A DNA stretch of 11,436 nucleotides, from the UHGV virus genome UHGV-0258155, one strand, 5' to 3'. Made by a program: the position numbers and the translations under genes. How positions within the stretch are numbered: the first letter of the stretch is position 1; each line of letters begins with the position of its first letter. A model generated the notes under the pieces. That model did no database searches. It was not told the origin of the DNA and worked only from the letters and a program-made list of their open reading frames with translations. This DNA comes from a virus. Shown here piece after piece: positions 1 through 8,694 of the stretch.

Positions 1-2813
1 CGCCAGGCATCCAGCAGTTCGTCGGCAAATACGGCATCTGGTTTGACTGCCTTCACGGCCTGGATCATGTCTGCTTTGGTACCGTACACTTTCAGTGGTG
101 CCGGTTTCTGTGCTTCCTGAGCCACAAGGTCAGGGTTGATGATTGCCAACTGCTCCAGCAGCGCGTCACGGCTGCCGCTGGTTTTAACCGGCGGCGGCAG
201 GGTGGCGTTGTACTCTTTAATGCATGCCTTCATTGCCGTCGCCGTCTGCTTCTGGTCACCATCAATACGCTGGAAGTCAGCTGGCAGCGCCATATAGTTC
301 TGTGCCGTTTCTTCCAGGTTAGCGCCAAGCGGAACCTGCGGCGGCAGGGTGGCGTTGTACTCTTCCAGTAACACCTTGATGTCGTCGGCAGACAGCAGCG
401 CCGGCAGGCTGGCATTGTGCTCATCGATAAAGGCGCGCAGGGTCGCGGCCGTTGTGAATGCGCCTTCAGGGATCACCGGTTCAACGCTGAATTCTGCGTC
501 CAGTAGTTCAGGCTGCAACGCCAGCGCATGCACCAAGTTGCCCATGTCCAGCACCGCTGAGCGCTCTTTGACGATGGTTTTCTCTACGTGGCGCGCATTG
601 AAGTACATCAGCGAAACGCGCGCATCTTTCACCTGGGTTGAGCTGATGCCGTTGGCGGCGTGGTAAACCTCGTTTGGCAGCCCTTCATAGCGGCCTGGCT
701 CGAAATAAGCGGGATAAACAACAGCCGGTTCGTCAGATTGCGCTTCTGGCTCGGTTTGTGCTGCAACTGGTTCGGTTTGGCTTACAGAATCGCTATTTTT
801 GGCGACAGAATCCGTATTCTGGTTTACATCGTCCTTCTGGCTGGTATCTGACTCTTCACCAGACTCCAGACTGCTTTCGCCTGGCTGTACTTCATCACCA
901 GCTTGTTTTTCATCACTGACAGTTTCTTGAACCTGCACATTGCTGGTGGTCTCCGTAGCCTTTTTCGTGCCATGAGTTGCTGAGTTCTGCAGCAAAGCCG
1001 TAACGTCGAATATTCCGTTGCCGACATTTTTAACCAGTTCTTGTTCGACTTTCTGCGGTTGTGCTGCCGCTTCCTCTGCGCGGCGGCGTGCTCCTTCTTC
1101 ACGCACGCGTTGCAGGTTCTCTTCGTGAGTGCAGAAGGATTTGCGCGGAGACTCCTTACCTTCAGGTTGGGGAATTTCCTGTGCTGCGGGTTCAGCCTCA
1201 TGCAACGGCAATAACTCGACCGCGGAATTGAACGCGGCTGTCATGGTCTGGTTAACAAATTCCAGGTGAGCGACAGGAGTTAAATGAATATTTTCCGGTG
1301 CGATACGTACCAGGTTAAAAATAGCCGTGCGGTTAACACCCAGAACGCCTGGCTGATTGCGCAGGATGTTGCTCCATGATTTCCATGGTTCTTCTTTTTT
1401 GGTCACGATTTCTTTAGCGCGACGAAGAATGCTGCCCGGGATCTCGAAGTGGTTGAAGTCCATAGGCAGAAGGGCACACGCAATCTCTAAATCGAGAGTG
1501 TCCAGTGTGTGGTGTGCGTCAGGTCCACGGTCAGTGACGTAACCGCCGTCGGCATTAGTGCCGGAATCAGTACGCTGCACACTACTGATGCGATTACCGG
1601 CGGCCCATTCGCGAACGAGGATACCGCGGTCGATGTGATCTGTAGCGAACCACAATTTCAAAAACTGGATTAAGGTTGCGAGTTCAGGGATTTTTCCATC
1701 GACAGGGAAGACTTTCTTAACGGCATTCACGACTTTATGAATATCGTGCTCAATGGCTTTTTTGAATGCTTCCACATTCTCAGCTGCCAGCAGCAGGTTC
1801 TGGACGTACGCGTCATCGGTGTCCATCTCAAGGCGGACAATCTCATTTTTCTGCCCTGCGTCGATGTGATAGAGATATTCACCATCACCGATGAACTGAG
1901 CCAGTACGCGCTGGCGGAATGGCAGGGTGGCAACAACGATCAGGTTCGGTTGCTGTGTCTGCTGGGATTGCTCTTCGGTATCGACTTCACCATCAACGAC
2001 GCCACCTTCTGCCCGGCCGTTCTCGTCGGTCTGGATACCGTCCTCAACAGTGAGATCTTGACCCGTTGTAACGTCAGCAGCGTTGCTGGTTTCAGTTTTG
2101 AGCAACTGCAACTTACCACTGCGCCAGTCTTCTACCAGTTGATTGCGGTCACCGGCATCGGTGTTCACCCAGTCAGACATGAATGCAGCGATCAATCTTG
2201 GTTCGTGCTCTTCGTCGGGTGTGAAAATGTCCTTAACCGCCCGAATCATTTTCCACTCAGCATTCAGGCTGAGTTTGGCGGTCGCGGGCACATCGTTCCT
2301 TGCCACAAGCAGGCTATGGAGATATGTATTGCCTTCATCCAGTGACATTTCGCTGGCAGCCAACTGCTGCTCTTTAGTGACGTGGGTTTGGTATTTATCG
2401 TTCATCAGATGGACGGCAAAGCGGACCGCTGGAGTACGGTTTTCAACCGGGACAATTTCGGACGCAGTCGCATCTTCAACGATTACGGTCGGAGTAGGTG
2501 TGTAGGGGGCGTCAACGGAACCAGTAGACACACCAGCGGCTTTTGGCAGCCAGGTGCGCCCATCGTCCTGAAGCTCGTAGCGATCACACCAGGTAAAATC
2601 AACTTCACCTTCTTTCGGCAGGCCGTCGACAACTGGGAAATCAGTGCGAATCGGTTTGGCGTAGTCCTTACCCCGACCTGTTTCGATACCTGCATCTTCC
2701 AGCGCAACATCCAGCATCAGATTGGCGCGAGCCTCGGTTTTAGCAGTGAACCAGACCACTGCATCTTGCTTTCCGGATTTCTGAGTGGCTTTAACCACAT
2801 TAAAGAATTCCAT
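1..2813 (-). CDS. recE: RecE-type exodeoxyribonuclease VIII (Rac-prophage-like); start ATG at 2813, 3' end lies beyond window start (>=937 codons in window)
   Basis: Minus-strand frame is open from 2813 to position 1; ATG at 2813-2811 is preceded by GAGGAT (RBS) and an in-frame TGA. Hand translation gives MEFFNVVKATQKSGKQDAVVWF...PVVDGLPKEGEVDFTWCDRYELQDDGRTW...REWAAGNRISSVQRTDSG...YFEPGRYEGLPNEVYHAANGISSTQVKDA. From memory these parallel E. coli RecE segments ([56 protein letters not shown]). The ORF track lists no complete ORF in this frame because it runs off the edge. Confidence 0.85.
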   Translation of the reverse strand, partial: MEFFNVVKATQKSGKQDAVVWFTAKTEARANLMLDVALEDAGIETGRGKDYAKPIRTDFPVVDGLPKEGEVDFTWCDRYELQDDGRTWLPKAAGVSTGSVDAPYTPTPTVIVEDATASEIVPVENRTPAVRFAVHLMNDKYQTHVTKEQQLAASEMSLDEGNTYLHSLLVARNDVPATAKLSLNAEWKMIRAVKDIFTPDEEHEPRLIAAFMSDWVNTDAGDRNQLVEDWRSGKLQLLKTETSNAADVTTGQDLTVEDGIQTDENGRAEGGVVDGEVDTEEQSQQTQQPNLIVVATLPFRQRVLAQFIGDGEYLYHIDAGQKNEIVRLEMDTDDAYVQNLLLAAENVEAFKKAIEHDIHKVVNAVKKVFPVDGKIPELATLIQFLKLWFATDHIDRGILVREWAAGNRISSVQRTDSGTNADGGYVTDRGPDAHHTLDTLDLEIACALLPMDFNHFEIPGSILRRAKEIVTKKEEPWKSWSNILRNQPGVLGVNRTAIFNLVRIAPENIHLTPVAHLEFVNQTMTAAFNSAVELLPLHEAEPAAQEIPQPEGKESPRKSFCTHEENLQRVREEGARRRAEEAAAQPQKVEQELVKNVGNGIFDVTALLQNSATHGTKKATETTSNVQVQETVSDEKQAGDEVQPGESSLESGEESDTSQKDDVNQNTDSVAKNSDSVSQTEPVAAQTEPEAQSDEPAVVYPAYFEPGRYEGLPNEVYHAANGISSTQVKDARVSLMYFNARHVEKTIVKERSAVLDMGNLVHALALQPELLDAEFSVEPVIPEGAFTTAATLRAFIDEHNASLPALLSADDIKVLLEEYNATLPPQVPLGANLEETAQNYMALPADFQRIDGDQKQTATAMKACIKEYNATLPPPVKTSGSRDALLEQLAIINPDLVAQEAQKPAPLKVYGTKADMIQAVKAVKPDAVFADELLDAW
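191..364 (-). repeat. Pair of identical 27-bp direct repeats (191-217 and 338-364), 147 bp apart and in frame inside recE; each encodes EYNATLPP
   Basis: gcggcggcagggtggcgttgtactctt occurs at 191-217 and 338-364. Translation in the recE frame gives KEYNATLPPP and EEYNATLPPQ; a third degenerate copy DEHNASLPA lies upstream in the protein. Confidence 0.8.
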
Positions 2814-2931
2814 GTGAGATCCTCATTTTTGGGTGTTAGAATCCCCGGACCATTGATAGCGCCCATTGGGTTAACTTTGGTTTTAATGTTGTTTCCGGTG
2901 TAACTTTGGTCGGTGAGGCCGGACATGGCGG

Positions 2932-2947
2932 GCCCACTTCGGTGGGC
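2932..2947 (-). other. GC-rich hairpin (GCCCAC-TTCG-GTGGGC) in the intergenic region between the RacC-position ORF stop and the recE start
   Basis: Perfect 6-bp inverted repeat with a 4-nt loop read directly; no U-tract follows on the minus-strand transcript, so this is not a classical intrinsic terminator. Confidence 0.3.
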
Positions 2948-2953
2948 TTTCGC

Positions 2954-3241
2954 TTAACTGACGGCTACGATCGCCTCATTCATAAAATCTTGCTTGTATG
3001 TACGGTAGGTTCCCCAGCCGGCGTAATCGCTATCGCTGATTTTGAGTACCAGCAAGCTGATCTCCTCAATGGCGCAGTGCGGGCAATCAAACTTGCCAAG
3101 CACATAGCCACCGTCGAGAATGACTGTTGTTTCACCGTTTGTAGTTGAGTGAATAACGCCTGATACTTTCTTCTCGCAGTTGAATGCAGCCACTTCTTTA
3201 TTCACTGCTTTCAGGTTCATTTCGATTTTTACGATTTCCAT
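2954..3241 (-). CDS. Hypothetical 95-aa protein immediately upstream of recE (RacC position; identity not verified)
   Basis: ORF-track ORF with ATG at 3241 preceded by GGAG at about 6 nt spacing; co-oriented with the operon. Contains C..C and CPHC motifs. Confidence 0.5.
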   Translation of the reverse strand: MEIVKIEMNLKAVNKEVAAFNCEKKVSGVIHSTTNGETTVILDGGYVLGKFDCPHCAIEEISLLVLKISDSDYAGWGTYRTYKQDFMNEAIVAVS

Positions 3242-3886: not shown

Positions 3887-4129
3887 TTATTCACACTTTG
3901 CATGCCTGACCGGCTTTAATTTCCACTCAGTGGCCTTAAGCTCAATTTCCTTCCTGATTTCCTGATACGTTTTCACGGAGCCATCAGCGTTTTTATTGAA
4001 CGGATTGAGCGTTTGATAAAACTTTTCCCGTCGTTTGCAGGCTTTACCGCATACGTCACACTTCCCTGATTTCTCAGCAAAAGTTGAGATCTCATCGAAC
4101 CGAGTTGTTGTAATTCCACCCCATCCCAT
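3887..4129 (-). CDS. Hypothetical 80-aa Cys-containing protein
   Basis: ORF-track ORF; ATG at 4129 preceded by AGAGGGTAAGG; CDVCGKAC motif; followed by the terminator at 3866-3886. Confidence 0.5.
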   Translation of the reverse strand: MGWGGITTTRFDEISTFAEKSGKCDVCGKACKRREKFYQTLNPFNKNADGSVKTYQEIRKEIELKATEWKLKPVRHAKCE

Positions 4130-4145
4130 CGCCTTACCCTCTGTC

Positions 4146-4162
4146 GTTACCCGCTGATGCGG
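4146..4162 (-). repeat. 17-bp motif GTTACCCGCTGATGCGG (plus-strand reading), copy 1, exactly 16 nt upstream of the ATG at 4129
   Basis: Identical 17-mer also at 4368-4384, likewise 16 nt upstream of the ATG at 4351. Contains a small CCGC-N4-GCGG hairpin. Confidence 0.7.
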
Positions 4163-4351
4163 TTATGTCTCATCGACGCATGGAAGTGATTTCCAGTCGA
4201 TATCGTTTTTTGCCGAATCCCACAGGCCTTTCTTTTTGTACTTTTCTGAGCATGGAATGCAGATGTTGTAAGGCCTGCCAACCATGTTTACAGATATTCT
4301 CTGCATCTCTTCAGATGCCAGAAAGTACCCACAGAATTGACACTTGTGCAT
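4163..4351 (-). CDS. Hypothetical 62-aa zinc-ribbon-like protein (CxxC...CxxC)
   Basis: ORF-track ORF; ATG at 4351 preceded by GGAGAG; MHKCQFCG...ICIPCSEKY. Confidence 0.5.
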   Translation of the reverse strand: MHKCQFCGYFLASEEMQRISVNMVGRPYNICIPCSEKYKKKGLWDSAKNDIDWKSLPCVDET

Positions 4352-4367
4352 ACGTACTCTCCACTTA

Positions 4368-4384
4368 GTTACCCGCTGATGCGG
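4368..4384 (-). repeat. 17-bp motif GTTACCCGCTGATGCGG, copy 2, 16 nt upstream of the ATG at 4351
   Basis: Exact repeat of 4146-4162, read directly. Confidence 0.7.
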
Positions 4385-4408
4385 GAGAAATGCTTTATCT
4401 ATCAGCTT

Positions 4409-4621
4409 CTACAACTCATCACGAATCTGTGAGAGTGTGCTGATCGCCTGGTAATGACCGCGACGCTGCTCTTCTGTTTTGAACGCACGCATATCGTCTT
4501 TTATCGATGCGATTGCCTTATTCAGAACTTCCACTTGCGCTTCTTTAATCGCCTGTTTGCGTGGCTTCTGACGCTTCTTAGGAAGGTCTCTTAAACACGC
4601 CGGAATGTATGTCTGAGTCAT
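4409..4621 (-). CDS. Hypothetical 70-aa basic protein, first gene of the leftward early operon; speculative N-like antiterminator candidate
   Basis: ORF-track ORF; ATG at 4621 preceded by AAGAGGA. The N-proximal stretch LPKKRQKPRKQAIKEAQ is Arg/Lys-rich. It is the first gene downstream of the PL-like promoter after a ~290-nt leader. The functional assignment is positional inference only. Confidence 0.5.
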   Translation of the reverse strand: MTQTYIPACLRDLPKKRQKPRKQAIKEAQVEVLNKAIASIKDDMRAFKTEEQRRGHYQAISTLSQIRDEL

Positions 4622-4845
4622 AAAAAATCCTCTTGTGATTCAGCCCAGCCCACTCAACTTCGAATGGACTGGAATAAATCTGTTTGCGCTTCGCACCTCT
4701 CATCCCGCCAGTGTTGCCCGTTCCCACGCCTTTATCGCTCTCGCGATGGGGTAGCCTCACACCGACCGGATCGCGCCCGGTGCTGCGCCGAATTTGTACG
4801 TTGGGGTCTAAACAGGATTACTGAGTGCTGTTCCGACTTTGCATG

Positions 4846-4878
4846 TTGTTAAAAAGCAGGCGACTTGCTGTCCGCCGC
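4846..4878 (-). promoter_or_regulatory. Leader RNA element: bulged hairpin followed by TGC-TTTTT and a sequence close to the rrn-type boxA (TGCTTTTTAACAA versus remembered consensus TGCTCTTTAACAA)
   Basis: Minus strand reads GGCG(G)AC-AGCAA-GTCGCC TGCTTTTTAACAACA. Could be an attenuator/terminator, a nut-like antitermination site, or both. Not folded computationally. Confidence 0.3.
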
Positions 4879-4922
4879 TGGCTAACTTCGCTCAGCTGTC
4901 GATGTTTCGTTTCGATGGAGTA

Positions 4923-4951
4923 ATTAAACATCATGTGGATTTGTAGGTCAA
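4923..4951 (-). promoter_or_regulatory. PL-like leftward promoter: TTGACC (4951-4946) - 17 bp - TTTAAT (4928-4923)
   Basis: Near-consensus -35 and TAnnnT -10 with 17-bp spacer read on the minus strand; overlapped by TGTGGATTT operator-like repeats. Confidence 0.45.
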
Positions 4952-5010
4952 CACCTTGTGGATTTATTTTGTTGATTTAATCGTTTACTGTTGATTTTTA
5001 TGTTGATTTA
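4934..5010. promoter_or_regulatory. OL-like operator cluster: five TGTKGATTT repeats (4934, 4957, 4970, 4989, 5001)
   Basis: TGTGGATTT x2 and TGTTGATTT(A) x3 read directly. The same motif family recurs between the cI-like and cro-like genes at 7815-7880. Confidence 0.45.
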
Positions 5011-5036
5011 TTTTTTGGTGGCATAAGTGATATGCT
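5003..5036 (+). promoter_or_regulatory. Candidate rightward promoter for the 65-aa gene (extended -10 TGaTATGCT at 5028-5036), overlapping operator repeats
   Basis: TG-n-TATGCT read directly; the -35 is poorly defined (TTGATT at 5003-5008 is 22 bp away); strong RBS AGGAG at 5053-5057. Confidence 0.3.
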
Positions 5037-5063
5037 GAAAAAAACATCAAAAAGGAGTGGGTA

Positions 5064-5261
5064 ATGGACTTGGATGAAGAAAGAGTGAACATGATGGTTC
5101 ACGCCATGGGGCGGGCGGTCATGGAGTTGTCACTGGCAGATTTACCTATGACCCAGCAAAACATCATCGACAAGCTGGAACGGTACCGGAAGGAAACGGG
5201 AAACGTGATAGGTAAGGGTGTGAACAGGGATGCAGCTGAGATAGTGCGGAAAGGACAATAA
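5064..5261 (+). CDS. Hypothetical 65-aa protein, convergent with the NTase cassette
   Basis: ORF-track ORF; ATG at 5064 with AGGAG 6 nt upstream; TAA stop at 5259-5261 abuts the hairpin at 5266-5281. Confidence 0.5.
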   Translation: MDLDEERVNMMVHAMGRAVMELSLADLPMTQQNIIDKLERYRKETGNVIGKGVNRDAAEIVRKGQ

Positions 5262-5281
5262 AAAAGCCCGCACGGGCGGGC
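5260..5281 (-). terminator. Intrinsic terminator (GCCCGC-ACGG-GCGGGC plus T6 on the minus strand); possibly bidirectional but weak for the plus strand
   Basis: Perfect 6-bp GC stem at 5266-5271/5276-5281 with the A6 run at 5260-5265, which is a U6 tract on the minus transcript. On the plus strand the hairpin is followed by AGGTAGTGTT (poor U-tract). Confidence 0.5.
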
Positions 5282-5365
5282 AGGTAGTGTTGCGATAGTT
5301 ATTGTTATCAGCTTCAGGCTGGATAGTTATCGGCAGAATGGAGGATGGCTTTATGGGTGGGCAAT

Positions 5366-5389
5366 AAAAAACCCGGCGCGGTGGCCGGG
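5366..5389 (-). terminator. Intrinsic terminator of the two-gene cassette (CCCGGC-CACCGC-GCCGGG plus T6 on the minus strand)
   Basis: Hairpin begins 7 nt after the TAA stop (5397-5399) of the 310-aa gene; 6-bp GC stem followed by a U6 tract. Confidence 0.6.
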
Positions 5390-5396
5390 TGAGATA

Positions 5397-6329
5397 TTAA
5401 AGAACCGATTTAACAAGATGGTTTTTACGGTACAGACCTATGCGATCATTGTGAATCTCAGTAGTCTCCACTAAAAGAGAAACAATCTGTCCGACCTTGT
5501 GTTTTTTTTGTATTAAATCTAGCATTTCAATCGGATAGGAAGCCTTTAAATGTTCACCACCAACATCAAGCTCCAGCTTCCCATATTTGGATAGAACGAC
5601 CAGTTCGCCTGTAACCGTTTCAGTAATGGGAGGGGATGAAATGGTTGATGTAAGTCTACTCACCAAGTACTTAATTTTATTGGAGTCAATAGTTGCCACC
5701 TTGGTGCCATTACTAAATGGACCGGTCCAACTTGCATCAAATGTTAAGTTGTGTTTATCGCATTCCTCTACGATTCTCTTAAGGCTTACAGTGGAATTGT
5801 ATCCAATTTCAGCGACGTGATTCATGAAGTTGTTGTCGTCATCGCTTAACAACAAATCGAATATGCCTTTTACAGCCTTGCTGGGTACTGTTTCTACTAA
5901 TTCTGCTATTCCTGTAGAGAAGGTGACGCCCAATTTTGTAGACCCAGGGGATAAATCAGCCAGCCTGAGGTTTAAGGAGCTTTTCACGTCGTAGGGAACT
6001 TTTTTTGAGTCCTTGCCTGAGGCAATTTTGTGTGTTGCTCTTTGTATTAGCGCTGCAAGATTTGTTGAAATAGCCCCAAGCAGCTCTAAAGGAATAGAGC
6101 CAAAGTCAACCTCAGAGCCTTTCAGCCGCAGCTCAAAAAAATCGATAAGTGGGTGCCGACTATCTTGCTTTAATTTTTCGGCCTTCAAATCGCTCAGATG
6201 AGAATCCATGGAGCGATAAAGAAGCATGTCAGCAAAGGACCTGGTTTTGTTTTGCTTCATTGCATCGACTTCTTTTTGAATGAAATCAATGCGTTTATCG
6301 CAATTTTTAAACATTGATTTATCATTCAT
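5397..6329 (-). CDS. Hypothetical 310-aa protein, second gene of the cassette; no motif recognised
   Basis: ORF-track ORF; ATG at 6329 overlaps the TGA of the upstream gene (ATGA, 6326-6329), with GAGGA upstream; AT-rich codon usage (K/N/I/S rich); followed by an intrinsic terminator. Confidence 0.7.
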   Translation of the reverse strand: MNDKSMFKNCDKRIDFIQKEVDAMKQNKTRSFADMLLYRSMDSHLSDLKAEKLKQDSRHPLIDFFELRLKGSEVDFGSIPLELLGAISTNLAALIQRATHKIASGKDSKKVPYDVKSSLNLRLADLSPGSTKLGVTFSTGIAELVETVPSKAVKGIFDLLLSDDDNNFMNHVAEIGYNSTVSLKRIVEECDKHNLTFDASWTGPFSNGTKVATIDSNKIKYLVSRLTSTISSPPITETVTGELVVLSKYGKLELDVGGEHLKASYPIEMLDLIQKKHKVGQIVSLLVETTEIHNDRIGLYRKNHLVKSVL

Positions 6330-6805
6330 AAAAAAATCCTCACTAACCCTTTCGGGTTTTCACTGCGATCAAAACCAAACCAACCGCGCCAGTAGCTACG
6401 CCAGTACTCATAATCATAGTTAGGGTCATCTAAATTCTTCATGAGTAGTAGGACATCAATTTTGTAGTTTTGTTTGATGTAGTTTCGGTCAAGCAAATTA
6501 TCGACGCGGCCCCGAAGCATGACAGGTATTGAGTTTATATTGCTATAGTCACATACCAACAAAATATCAATATCATCAGGCTCTGGTTTAGACGTGGTGT
6601 ATGAACCATCAACCCATATTTCTGTAAAACAGCCATATTGAGCAGATAATTCTCGAATAGATTCGAGTAGCTGTATAAAATTACAGTATAGCATGCCTCG
6701 CCTGGATGATGAAGGAAAGCAATCGACACAATACGATTTTAATCCAGCTTCATCCATGTCATGGAACCCTGGCTCAAACAGGGGTGGGTAATTAATTTTA
6801 TCCAT
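6326..6805 (-). CDS. 159-aa protein with a minimal nucleotidyltransferase (Pol-beta superfamily)-like motif, first gene of the cassette
   Basis: ORF-track ORF; ATG at 6805. Sequence IWVDGSYTTSKPEPDDIDILLV fits the hG[GS]-x9-13-DxD pattern, with a further candidate acidic residue in NYKIDVLLL. Motif match by eye only. Confidence 0.65.
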   Translation of the reverse strand: MDKINYPPLFEPGFHDMDEAGLKSYCVDCFPSSSRRGMLYCNFIQLLESIRELSAQYGCFTEIWVDGSYTTSKPEPDDIDILLVCDYSNINSIPVMLRGRVDNLLDRNYIKQNYKIDVLLLMKNLDDPNYDYEYWRSYWRGWFGFDRSENPKGLVRIFL

Positions 6806-6841
6806 AAAAAACCTTGCTATACATTTGTTTTTTTTATTAAA

Positions 6842-6869
6842 AATCTAACCACCGAAATGGTGACGGCAA
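6842..6869 (-). promoter_or_regulatory. Candidate promoter for the cassette: TTGCCG (6869-6864) - 16 bp - TAGATT (6847-6842)
   Basis: Read on the minus strand about 37 nt upstream of the ATG at 6805; the spacer contains a short inverted repeat CACC-N6-GGTG. Read-through from the cI promoter is an alternative. Confidence 0.3.
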
Positions 6870-6953
6870 GATGTTACATGGGGTTACAATCAGCCAATAC
6901 ACCGCATTAAATAATTTTTTCACCAGCTATGCGCCGACCAGAACACCTTGCCC

Positions 6954-7066
6954 ATCACCCAAACGTCTCATCAGGCCACCATAAGCACGATCGCAACAAC
7001 CGAGAGCAAAGTAACCACGCCTACTATCAGATATTCTCTTATCACCCAAACGTCTCTTCAGGCCAC
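6954..7066. repeat. Two 26-bp direct repeats (6954-6979 and 7041-7066, one mismatch) between the cI stop and the cassette
   Basis: atcacccaaacgtctcatcaggccac and atcacccaaacgtctcttcaggccac read directly, 87 bp apart; the second copy ends 5 nt from the cI stop codon. Confidence 0.75.
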
Positions 7067-7071
7067 TAAAA

Positions 7072-7782
7072 TTATCGGCGATATCGCAATACCGAGTACC
7101 AGAACACAAAACCGATTATCTCGACATCTGCCTCATCAGCCTCTTCATCGTCATAATCGCGATTGATGCTTCGTATTAATAGCTTCCCACCAGGCTTTCG
7201 ATAAAGCTGCTTTATGCGCTTTAAATCGCCCTGGTTAATAGCATAGAGTTCGCCGTCAATAATCCGCTTGTTGCCTGTATCGACTGCTACCGTTGCGCCG
7301 TCAGGAATAACGGGCTCCATGCTGTCACCAGAAGCGGGAAAGCAAAGCACTCCAGAACCATCACTATTTGCACCCACCCTTCTGAGCGTTGCCTTGGAGA
7401 ACCTCAGTTTAAAGCCGTTATGATCTTCGCTATGAACACGCCCATCACCACACGCAAACTCGATATCCTTCAGAAACGGTACTTCCACCTCATCGTCAGG
7501 TAGGGGGGTATTTTTGTCCCAAGCGTCGACAGTTCCCCACTCAGACTCTGGCGGGATGTTGCTCTCCAGATCCTTCTTTGGAGAACCCTCTCCATTTAAT
7601 AACCAGTCAAGAGAATAACCGAATTTTTCAGATATTTGTTGCGCCGCCTCACGACTTAACGCGTCTCTTTTTATCCAGTTGTTGACGGTCTGTGGGCTAG
7701 TCGACAAAGCCTCAGCCAAATCCCGCTGCTTCAAGCCTTCCCTTGCCAGTAAAAATTTAATTCTTTCAGAAATGCTGCTCAT
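7072..7782 (-). CDS. CI-type prophage repressor: N-terminal XRE-family HTH plus C-terminal S24 (LexA-like) self-cleaving peptidase domain
   Basis: ORF-track ORF 7072..7836. I place the start at the internal ATG 7782 (MSSISERIKFLLAREGLKQRDLAEAL...), which has GGAGCGGAGGG immediately upstream. GDSMEP (Ser nucleophile) and a downstream LKRIK Lys fit the S24 family. Confidence 0.85.
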   Translation of the reverse strand: MSSISERIKFLLAREGLKQRDLAEALSTSPQTVNNWIKRDALSREAAQQISEKFGYSLDWLLNGEGSPKKDLESNIPPESEWGTVDAWDKNTPLPDDEVEVPFLKDIEFACGDGRVHSEDHNGFKLRFSKATLRRVGANSDGSGVLCFPASGDSMEPVIPDGATVAVDTGNKRIIDGELYAINQGDLKRIKQLYRKPGGKLLIRSINRDYDDEEADEADVEIIGFVFWYSVLRYRR

Positions 7783-7899
7783 AAAACCCTCCGCTCCATG
7801 CATGGTAAACAACATGTGGATTTTTTCCATCACCATAATGTTGATTTAATCCACGCCATGAATTAACATGGTGTTGATTACACATGAGCGGAGCAAAAC
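7783..7899. promoter_or_regulatory. OR-like divergent promoter/operator region between the cI-like and cro-like genes; three TGTKGATT repeats (7815, 7839, 7872); candidate PR TTGATT (7841-7846) - 17 bp - TAACAT (7864-7869)
   Basis: Repeats read directly and shared with the OL-like cluster; the motif GGTGTTGA at 7870-7877 recurs as its reverse complement TCAACACC at 4947-4954. Confidence 0.45.
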
Positions 7900-8121
7900 A
7901 TGATCAACAAAAAATCCAACGCCAGCACCCCGCTTGAGAAAGCCATTAATGCAGTGGGCGGCTCTCAAAAGGTGCTTGCTGAAAAGGTCGGCGTAACGCC
8001 TCAGGCCATCAATATGCTTAAAAAGCGAGGTGGCAGCCTTCCAGTAACAAAAATGCGTAAATACGAAGAAGTAACCGGACTTCCTCGCGAAGTTCTATAT
8101 CCAGGTATCTTTGCCGCCTAA
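7900..8121 (+). CDS. Cro/YdaS-like small HTH regulator (73 aa)
   Basis: ORF-track ORF divergent from the repressor; GGAG 6 nt upstream of the ATG; AINAVGGSQKVLAEKVGVTPQAINMLKKRG is a typical Cro/YdaS-type helix-turn-helix. Confidence 0.7.
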   Translation: MINKKSNASTPLEKAINAVGGSQKVLAEKVGVTPQAINMLKKRGGSLPVTKMRKYEEVTGLPREVLYPGIFAA

Positions 8122-8129
8122 CCGGCGGC
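8113..8129 (+). other. GC hairpin GCCGCC-TAACC-GGCGGC overlapping the cro-like stop codon, followed by TCTAACCA
   Basis: Perfect 6-bp stem read directly; no U-tract. Position corresponds to nutR/tR1 in lambda. Confidence 0.3.
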
Positions 8130-8151
8130 TCTAACCACGAAAGGGAAAGCA

Positions 8152-8694
8152 ATGCATTCACTTGCGTATCAACACAATACCGGAATACACCCGGGAGCGA
8201 TGATAAACCGCGCTCAAGCTAAAGCGACGCCGGACCACGAAAAGATCCGCGATGCGGTCCGTGCCTGGTCATCGGCGCTGGATAATCAGGACGTGGTGTC
8301 AGCGCTGATCATCAACGAATACCGGGAGCAGGGCGGGACCGCCATCAGCTTTCCGGACGACATCAGCCGGGCGCGCCAGAAGCTGTTCCGCTTTCTGGAT
8401 AACCGCTTCGACTCTGAGCAGTACCGCGAGAACGTGCGCCAGCTGACACCGGCAATCATGGCGGTCCTGCCGGTTGAGTATCGCACTCGCCTGATCGGTG
8501 CCGATTGCAAAATGTCTCGCCTGGCTGAGGCCGAGAAAGAACTCGCAGAGGCTAAACAGGCCGTGCTGCTGGACGCTCCAGAGCATCAGAAGCTGAAAGA
8601 GGTAAGCGAGGGTATAGCGTCGCTCTTCCGCCTCATGCCGGAGCAGGTAGGACCGCTGATGACGATGGTTACATCGATGCTGGGGGTTATATGA
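8152..8694 (+). CDS. Hypothetical 180-aa protein in the CII/YdaT position (phage regulatory protein-like; weakly supported)
   Basis: ORF-track ORF; AAGGGAAAG RBS upstream of the ATG at 8152; second gene of the rightward operon after cro-like. Family assignment is positional and from vague recall. Confidence 0.5.
   Translation: MHSLAYQHNTGIHPGAMINRAQAKATPDHEKIRDAVRAWSSALDNQDVVSALIINEYREQGGTAISFPDDISRARQKLFRFLDNRFDSEQYRENVRQLTPAIMAVLPVEYRTRLIGADCKMSRLAEAEKELAEAKQAVLLDAPEHQKLKEVSEGIASLFRLMPEQVGPLMTMVTSMLGVI

Follow-up and report, generated by a model that had tools for sequence, protein, structure and literature searches.

What kind of protein is encoded beside a nucleotidyltransferase (NTase)-like gene in a lambdoid prophage, and what might the two do together? 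The question arises from UHGV virus genome UHGV-0258155, analysed here over a window of 11,436 nucleotides (the whole stretch of DNA under study). The initial annotation, made from the sequence and its reading frames, had described one gene product of 310 aa as an orphan effector candidate lacking recognisable motifs, and had proposed that it functions with its 159-aa NTase-like neighbour as a sensor or effector. The present analysis indicates that the locus is almost certainly a member of the PADLOC candidate system PDC-M63, which consists of an A and a B protein, and that the 310-aa protein (B) may best be explained as the subunit that provides recognition and regulation in a conflict module based on an NTase. 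We give this whole statement a probability of about 0.5.

The 310-aa gene is real: its family comprises 265 representatives of one architecture, and its AlphaFold2 (AF2) models have pLDDT values of 79.8 for the full-length protein and 93.3 (pTM 0.89) for the central domain modelled alone from a diverse alignment of 40 sequences. The 265 representatives (clustered at 50% identity) came from a profile search that covered 1.84 billion representative sequences exhaustively, with a cutoff of E <= 1e-3; nearly all of them measure 300-330 aa and match end to end. A word-indexed search yielded 72 closer relatives in the Enterobacterales. When only the central domain was used as the profile query, the search returned the same family of about 310 aa and no alternative architectures.

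The protein has a pI of 8.3 and a GRAVY value of -0.24. Its highest 19-residue Kyte-Doolittle mean is only 1.38, and it therefore contains no membrane span, as had been noted from the sequence. It had also been called rich in Lys, Asn, Ser and Ile; this is correct for Lys and Ser (10% each), which are abundant together with Leu (12.3%), whereas Asn (4.5%) and Ile (6.5%) are not marked. Scans of the protein against Pfam and NCBIfam gave zero matches, and when 90 diverse members of the family were scanned leniently against Pfam, no consistent family emerged. Pfam scans and hydropathy likewise showed no SAVED/CARF, TIR, nuclease, phospholipase or transmembrane segment, and sequence searches of the PDB with profiles of the 310-aa family and of the NTase returned only noise (a SAVED chain at E 1.2). 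The string RSMDSH, which extends from R39 to H44, is the single Rx4H match in the protein and had rightly been considered insufficient by itself. Since R39 is retained in only 12 and H44 in 57 of the 90 diverse homologs in the family alignment, we regard the string as a chance Rx4H rather than a HEPN motif, and the HEPN reading was dropped. HEPN families of Pfam were matched by at most one of the 90 members, and the fold predicted by AF2 contains no four-helix HEPN bundle. The earlier view that the protein carries no Walker, nuclease or HEPN signature thus agrees with the Pfam scan, the lenient scan of 90 members and the conservation of the motif.

A remote homology search against defence datasets, which the initial annotation had proposed, proved informative. 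In PADLOC-DB, the 310-aa protein matches PDC-M63B with a best E-value of 7.5e-45 (residues 23-304 against positions 20-300 of a 309-position profile), and six of the six PDC-M63B profiles in the database recognise it. It also belongs to PHROG 6603 (E 3.4e-147) and its partner to PHROG 9194, neither of which carries a functional annotation. The partner matches PDC-M63A, such that both proteins fit their respective HMMs over nearly their full length; the genes are adjacent, on the same strand and overlapping, in an architecture identical to that of PDC-M63, which is itself a computational candidate system. An additional, weak match of the 310-aa protein was observed to positions 5-90 of the PDC-M32A profile (E 3.4e-5). 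The designation "orphan" does not hold, in view of the PDC-M63B and PHROG 6603 matches, the occurrence of the gene in phage mEpX1 and in 18 E. coli genomes, and a previous deletion assay. As an entity, the system is already catalogued and its novelty is low; any novelty would lie in how the family works and how its central domain folds.

The deletion assay is the sole published test of PDC-M63AB. When the pair was removed from an E. coli NILS69 prophage, the infectivity of 10 virulent dsDNA phages did not change (bioRxiv 10.1101/2024.12.20.629700). The panel was small and comprised virulent phages only, with no temperate ones, so that the result weakens the defence reading without refuting it. 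Our literature searches on DUF6932, on a defence system combining an NTase with an OB fold, and on the function of mEpX1 found nothing relevant.

The partner gene encodes a DUF6932 protein in which G67-S68, D78-x-D80 and D117 are invariant among five sequences, down to 37% identity. Relatives of this protein match weakly to Polbeta (PF18765, MNT-type) and NTP_transf_2, which are its nearest Pfam families. Because the Pol-beta catalytic pattern is kept, the 159-aa protein is, judging from sequence, very probably an active minimal nucleotidyltransferase. The ATG of the 310-aa reading frame (positions 6329-6327) overlaps the TGA of the 159-aa frame by 4 bp (ATGA), and a GAGGA motif lies 7 nt upstream. 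The same 4-bp overlap between the DUF6932 gene and the B gene occurs in 17 of the 17 loci of the first batch for which upstream sequence was available, in agreement with the translational coupling that had been deduced from this locus alone. When the search was started from distant DUF6932 genes, the downstream gene was a member of the 310-aa family in five settings (Desulfoferrobacter, Pseudoalteromonas, Tenacibaculum, Nitrospirae and a metagenome), with E-values from 1e-87 to 1e-116. A Desulfuromusa locus, which stands outside these five profile-scored settings, shows a DUF6932 gene followed by a gene for a 325-aa protein. Throughout these further loci (the five scored and the others reached from the DUF6932 side), the two genes, as called, overlap or leave a gap of no more than 16 bp. 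The overlap or adjacency of the pair is thus preserved from the Enterobacterales to the Bacteroidota, Desulfobacterota and Nitrospirota, and supports the view of the 310-aa protein as an obligate, translationally coupled partner of the NTase-like gene.

One exception is instructive. On an acidobacterial contig (L022), the DUF6932 gene is followed by a gene for a 336-aa protein, of which only the first 50 or so residues match the family (profile positions 3-53, E 2.4e-10), the remainder being composed of TPR repeats. This single locus suggests that the N-terminal hairpin of the 310-aa protein belongs with the transferase and is the part that couples to it, and that the rest is an exchangeable body.

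The structural prediction and Foldseek comparison that had been recommended for this protein gave a model of three parts: an N-terminal helical hairpin, a mixed alpha/beta middle and a C-terminal OB unit (Table 1). In the hairpin, position 40 (Ser in the query) is polar in 96% and position 48 (Leu) aliphatic in 98% of the 90 homologs. The central domain has no match to any solved structure when compared with PDB folds by Foldseek. A comparison with predicted viral structures (BFVD) gave three significant matches of this domain, each to the N-terminal half of a phage protein of 270-381 aa. Two of these are A0A8S5QA00, annotated as DUF6575-containing (E 5.5e-9, TMq 0.73), and Q6NE06 of Leptospira phage LE1 (E 4.2e-6, TMq 0.71); the weak PDC-M32A match agrees with these superpositions. 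Both of these phage proteins, which are 370-381 aa long, differ from the 310-aa protein in their C-terminal portion and lack an OB fold. A list of domains from experimentally validated defence genes of E. coli includes DUF6575 (PMC9519451). The region in common may correspond to DUF6575, a connection that is a lead rather than a test.

The C-terminal unit forms a closed barrel of five strands with a helix between b3 and b4, and it superposes on known OB domains, including those of SSB, RuvA domain I, RPA and PriB, the anticodon-binding domain of AsnRS and the MCM N-domains, with 8-20% identity, i.e., at the level of fold. The protein does not match the SSB Pfam family, and, in contrast to the SSB, RPA, PriB and RuvA domains, it carries its single OB fold at the end of a larger polypeptide. 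The original proposal would have been contradicted by a confident relationship to a phage protein with a characterised structural or housekeeping role; none was found, and the likeness to SSB and RuvA remains one of fold. Several OB positions are kept family-wide, namely basic residues at 251, 278 and 301, aromatic residues at 265 and 304, and a conserved L-S-x-x-G-K/R loop. In OB folds, strands b2-b3 together with the L12 and L45 loops usually form the ligand face. According to the strand assignments of the model, the conserved basic and aromatic residues would lie in or near b2-b5 and the loops. The C-terminus is thus predicted to be a fold of the nucleic-acid-binding type, and binding of nucleic acid would be expected from the model.

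Examination of the conserved residues in 90 sequences, which share 19-46% identity with the query, shows that Ser130 is the only invariant one. It is located in a loop between strands 122-124 and 132-137, with the consensus R-L-A-x4-G-S-T-R/K-L. The near-invariant positions (G129, W201, G77, G176 and P80) are mostly Gly, Pro or Trp, and the other conserved polar positions are E63, R68, R122, D142 and S147. The set presents no recognisable catalytic constellation, and could nevertheless be the catalytic centre of an unrecognised enzyme.

Table 1. Features of the PDC-M63 locus and its surroundings, with positions in the 11,436-nt window
Feature	Position	Strand	Basis and remarks
Intrinsic terminator closing the cassette	5361..5390	-	Stem 5390..5371 of 7 pairs (6 GC), then TTTTTATT; T-run
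Mobile cassette (terminator, both genes and remnant of the 3' end of a lambda-type cI)	5353..6979	.	99.6% identity to mEpX1; flanks differ
Gene for the 310-aa protein (PDC-M63B / PHROG 6603)	5397..6329	-	Open reading frame with ATG start; PADLOC, PHROGs, 265 representatives
Residues 233-310, C-terminal OB fold (b1-b2-b3-helix-b4-b5)	5400..5633	-	AF2
Residues 58-232, central alpha/beta domain	5634..6158	-	AF2; carries the E63/R68/R122/G129-S130-T131 cluster
Gly129-Ser130 codons (ggg tct), beta-hairpin loop	5940..5945	-	S130 in 90/90 and G129 in 89/90 sequences, alignment A2
Residues 1-57, N-terminal helical hairpin (helices 10-25 and 32-56)	6159..6329	-	AF2 secondary structure; only part kept in the acidobacterial variant (L022)
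Coupling junction	6326..6341	-	GAGGA Shine-Dalgarno at 6341-6337; ATGA overlap at 6329-6326 (sequence reading)
Partner gene, 159-aa minimal Pol-beta-type nucleotidyltransferase (DUF6932 / PDC-M63A)	6326..6805	-	Pfam DUF6932, E 1.7e-24; PDC-M63A, E 1.8e-41
phi80-type cI repressor gene	7072..7836	-	Peptidase_S24 and Phage_CI_repr; flank matches phi80 cI; directly upstream, co-oriented

The window corresponds to the early part of a lambdoid prophage of mosaic make-up, which combines a RecE/Kil left arm like that of HK225 with a phi80-type cI, cro, a YdaT-like gene, and O- and DnaC-like replication genes. The two genes and their terminator form a cassette of about 1.6 kb, the only block in common with phage mEpX1, whose annotation gives the order N - cassette - cI. 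At its junction, the cassette retains sequence from the 3' end of lambda cI and the adjoining spacer. The terminator is strong, begins 6 nt past the stop codon of the 310-aa gene and lies within the common block. The true start of the cI gene is likely M19, at position 7782. From the gene arrangement, cI is the probable source of cassette transcription in lysogens; the gap between cI and the NTase gene is 266 bp here and includes a weak terminator-like hairpin (6867..6848).

At the position of the cassette between cI and N, lambda has rexA-rexB and phi80 has 40A/40B. Lambdoid prophages classically keep superinfection-exclusion genes, rexAB among them, in this slot. A pair with 46% identity occupies the same slot in Providencia prophages. 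A locus search with one alignment of the family (A1) gave seven Enterobacterales loci as species representatives, and in five of these the co-oriented upstream gene codes for an HTH or S24 repressor. Loci with a repressor gene upstream and co-oriented include those of mEpX1, Providencia, Biostraticola, Silvania, Citrobacter, Proteus and one unclassified Enterobacteriaceae genome. Only 18 of the 5426 complete E. coli genomes carry the identical two genes, which there too stand between a repressor and the N side, and lambdoid phages can therefore do without the cassette.

In distant bacteria, the pair resides among genes for GmrSD, Mrr, NERD, MmeI, type I HsdR and SIR2, and HigBA- and HicAB-like genes are also located beside it. 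Such surroundings mark the pair as mobile cargo for conflict or defence rather than as phage structural or housekeeping genes, and it probably has a conflict or exclusion function of some kind.

The explanation that we prefer, in which B serves as the recognition or regulatory subunit, would operate as follows. The module is accessory cargo of a phi80/HK225-like lambdoid prophage, inserted between cI and N/pL, and is probably transcribed with cI in lysogens. B would form a complex with the nucleotidyltransferase, holding or directing it through the hairpin, which would travel with the enzyme, while the central domain and the OB fold would bind nucleic acid or another cue of infection. Upon superinfection, the transferase might be released or targeted, and would then nucleotidylate a cellular or phage substrate. 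Candidate substrates are the 3' end of RNA or DNA, in the manner of MenT/AbiEii, or B itself at Ser130, in the manner of MntA-HepT, each of which we consider doubtful. The transfer would arrest growth or replication, with the putative outcome that the incoming phage is excluded.

We favour this model because of the family match, the pairing in 17 of 17 loci, the setting between cI and N, the defence-type neighbours elsewhere, the terminator, the confidently modelled central domain with its BFVD matches, the conserved OB residues, the lack of an enzyme signature in B, the exchange of the body in the acidobacterial variant and the invariant GS...DxD...D of the transferase. Of the two roles that had been offered for the protein, sensor or effector, that of a sensor or regulator is somewhat favoured over that of a catalytic effector: the latter is unproven, no catalytic set is recognised, the C-terminus is a binding fold, and in the L022 relative all of the protein past the hairpin gives way to TPR repeats, which typically serve for recognition. 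Several points weigh against the model. The NILS69 deletion gave a null result. The promoter and operon evidence consists of the gene arrangement, with the 266-bp gap and its hairpin intervening. OB folds also bind proteins and sugars, and the fold match here is at 8-20% identity; the TPR variant is a single locus, and the invariant Ser beside the conserved E63, R68, R122 and D142 could be a catalytic centre.

The invariant Ser is also central to a toxin-antitoxin (TA) or addiction reading of type VII-like character, in which A would nucleotidylylate B at Ser130 and so keep it inactive, and the unmodified B would be a toxin that clamps onto nucleic acid via its OB fold; the role of the pair might then be to stabilise the prophage or island rather than to defend. 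In type VII systems (MntA-HepT), the NTase gene comes first and overlaps tightly with that of its partner, and the order and overlap observed here resemble this arrangement. The NTase is of the MNT/Polbeta type, the single invariant Ser is predicted to lie in an exposed hairpin loop, the HigBA- and HicAB-like neighbours mark sites that collect TA systems, and the negative defence assay would fit. Yet B is not a HEPN protein, its Rx4H not being kept, and it has no toxin-like catalytic motif; moreover, the TPR-for-OB replacement is easier to understand if the C-terminus is a sensor, and the defence-island neighbourhoods also speak against addiction. On balance, we consider this reading unlikely. 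A signalling scheme of the CBASS or Hailong type, in which A would produce a nucleotide or oligonucleotide second messenger and B would be a receptor-effector that binds it through the OB or central domain and then kills catalytically or by binding DNA, appears less probable still; it corresponds to the effector role of the initial annotation. The active-site residues of the transferase are invariant, OB folds can bind oligonucleotides, the Gly-Ser-Thr-Arg/Lys loop could bind phosphate, and CBASS and Hailong share the two-gene logic of an NTase with a partner. The 159-aa NTase, however, has neither the C-terminal helical domain of CD-NTases nor a SMODS/CD-NTase match in Pfam or PADLOC, B shows none of the usual effector or sensor domains listed above (the SAVED chain at E 1.2 being noise), and the 4-bp coupling, stoichiometric synthesis and shared hairpin suggest that A and B form a stable complex instead of communicating by a diffusible signal.

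Least probable of all, and in our estimate very improbable, is a function outside conflict, either as a modulator of the lysis-lysogeny switch or as an SSB/RuvA-like factor in replication or recombination. RexA has recently been proposed to be such a switch modulator. The location of the pair directly after cI, and the likeness of the OB fold to RuvA domain I and SSBs, would be consistent with roles of this kind, but bacteria of distant phyla carry the pair as well, in defence islands rather than prophages. Furthermore, its slot is a site of variable cargo (40A/40B in phi80, rexAB in lambda), the cassette is rare among E. coli genomes, and the proteins bear no sequence relation to RexA, RexB or the SSB Pfam family.

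If the recognition-subunit model is extended to the entire family, PDC-M63 would be a new class of NTase-based immunity, built from a minimal Pol-beta enzyme, a hairpin adaptor and interchangeable sensor bodies, and used as a replacement for RexAB; we advance this as a tentative proposal. Were it true, the sensor body would mostly be an alpha/beta fold without a solved counterpart joined to an OB fold, and elsewhere a TPR array, and prophages would deploy the system from the cI operon. The invariant Ser130 loop would then be either a site of self-nucleotidylylation or a new element for binding a ligand or phosphate. The nature of the cargo in the cI-to-N slot is of interest in that it tells how lysogens are protected. 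For the protein itself, the label "hypothetical protein" can be exchanged for a testable model: an OB fold, a domain confidently predicted to be of new fold with a single invariant Ser, and a hairpin adaptor co-varying with the minimal NTase. Since mEpX1 is a cultivable phage of E. coli K-12 with a near-identical cassette, the genetics and biochemistry should be straightforward.

Comparison with known systems places the module among two-gene arrangements of several kinds. With lambda RexA/RexB it shares slot and orientation, i.e., two genes after cI and before N/pL, ending in a terminator. Homology was considered and dropped (BLASTP E-values of 1.3 and 12); there is no hydrophobic span, and thus no membrane protein of the RexB type. 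Hailong (HalA/HalB) couples an NTase to a transmembrane channel effector, whereas the models of B are globular and soluble. CBASS differs both in its CD-NTase and in the recognised sensor or killing domain that B lacks. The MenAT and AbiE systems likewise consist of two genes, with a nucleotidyltransferase as the active component, and they provide a plausible model for A. The MenT/AbiEii toxins, about 290 aa in length, belong to the DUF1814 type, and their genes follow that of a small antitoxin; MenT modifies the 3' ends of tRNA. In the present case, by contrast, the enzyme is a 159-aa DUF6932 protein encoded upstream, and five DUF6932 members gave no DUF1814/AbiEii match at E <= 10. A further resemblance is to HepT-MntA, where a Pol-beta NTase of about 150 aa, encoded first, is tightly coupled to a larger partner, and to which Polbeta and NTP_transf_2, the nearest Pfam families, also point. 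The 159-aa protein displays the G[GS]...DxD pattern and third Asp of that NTase. The partner differs: it is not a HEPN protein, Rx4-6H is not kept, and a hairpin, a new alpha/beta domain and an OB fold stand in its place, with no RNase signature. With this non-HEPN partner, the module would, by analogy, be most like the MNT-based two-gene modules in its manner of working.

Similarity between the window and mEpX1, an E. coli phage with a near-identical cassette, is confined to a 1.6-kb block (5353-6979, 99.6%) that does not extend into the flanks. The right flank, with cI, and the 5200-5390 side are matched by phi80, while the left arm, encoding RecE and Kil, is matched by HK225 and mEp237. The arrangement is a textbook mosaic junction surrounding a cargo cassette, and the same slot between cI and N is occupied in phi80 by genes 40A/40B.

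The spacer between cI and the NTase gene carries a 31-nt direct repeat, the two copies of which are 90% identical and spaced 87 nt (see table below). Both copies are remnants of a lambda-type cI gene, namely of its 3' end (CAGTGGCCTGAAGAGACGTTTGG), and the cI-rexA spacer sequence of lambda continues from the distal copy (window 6924-6979 corresponds to lambda 37196-37251, 94.6%). The copies look like scars of successive swaps of immunity modules or cargo at a conserved recombination site.

Features of the window outside the two cassette genes
Feature	Position	Strand	Remarks
isrB (Rfam match)	2855-2952	+	38.2 bits (gathering score 35), E 4.9e-4
65-aa ORF, PHROG 3975 (unknown function)	5064-5261	+	convergent, beyond both terminators
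Tandem intrinsic terminators (two)	5390..5371 and 5281..5266	-	~90 nt apart
Direct repeat, 31 nt (two copies)	6954-6984 and 7041-7071		cI-to-NTase spacer
cI ORF	7072-7836	-	254 aa as listed from first ATG
Early regulators at cro and cII positions	7900-8694	+

Two terminators lie 3' of the two cassette genes, the second of which has no obvious gene upstream. Further left, a long RecE-type exonuclease gene evidently occupies positions 1-3241 on the minus strand and extends past the left end of the window; because it is open at that end, it is missing from the ORF list. The many ORFs of 50-200 aa listed on both strands of this region are shadows of the RecE-type gene. The isrB match also falls inside the RecE-homologous region; it is borderline and could be of chance origin. 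isrB is an Hfq-binding sRNA, originally described from Salmonella islands.

A partial relative of the 310-aa protein PDC-M63B is encoded in an acidobacterial contig (L022, positions 4001-5464; Pyrinomonadaceae MAG, GCA_035317005.1), where a DUF6932 gene is followed by that of a 336-aa protein, the locus being surrounded by pyrimidine-biosynthesis genes. The 336-aa protein resembles PDC-M63B family members (E 2.4e-10) only in its N-terminal helical hairpin of about 50 residues; TPR repeats make up the remainder. This one locus suggests a modular design, in which a hairpin adaptor is joined to a variable sensor.

In phi80 the annotated cI has 236 aa. The equivalent start in the window cI is M19 (MSSISERIK..., position 7782), and codons 1-18 of the listed ORF are probably not translated. 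Encoded at the cro and cII positions are early regulators of the Rac-prophage type, a 73-aa YdaS/HTH_3-type protein and a 180-aa YdaT-family protein, rather than lambda Cro and CII.
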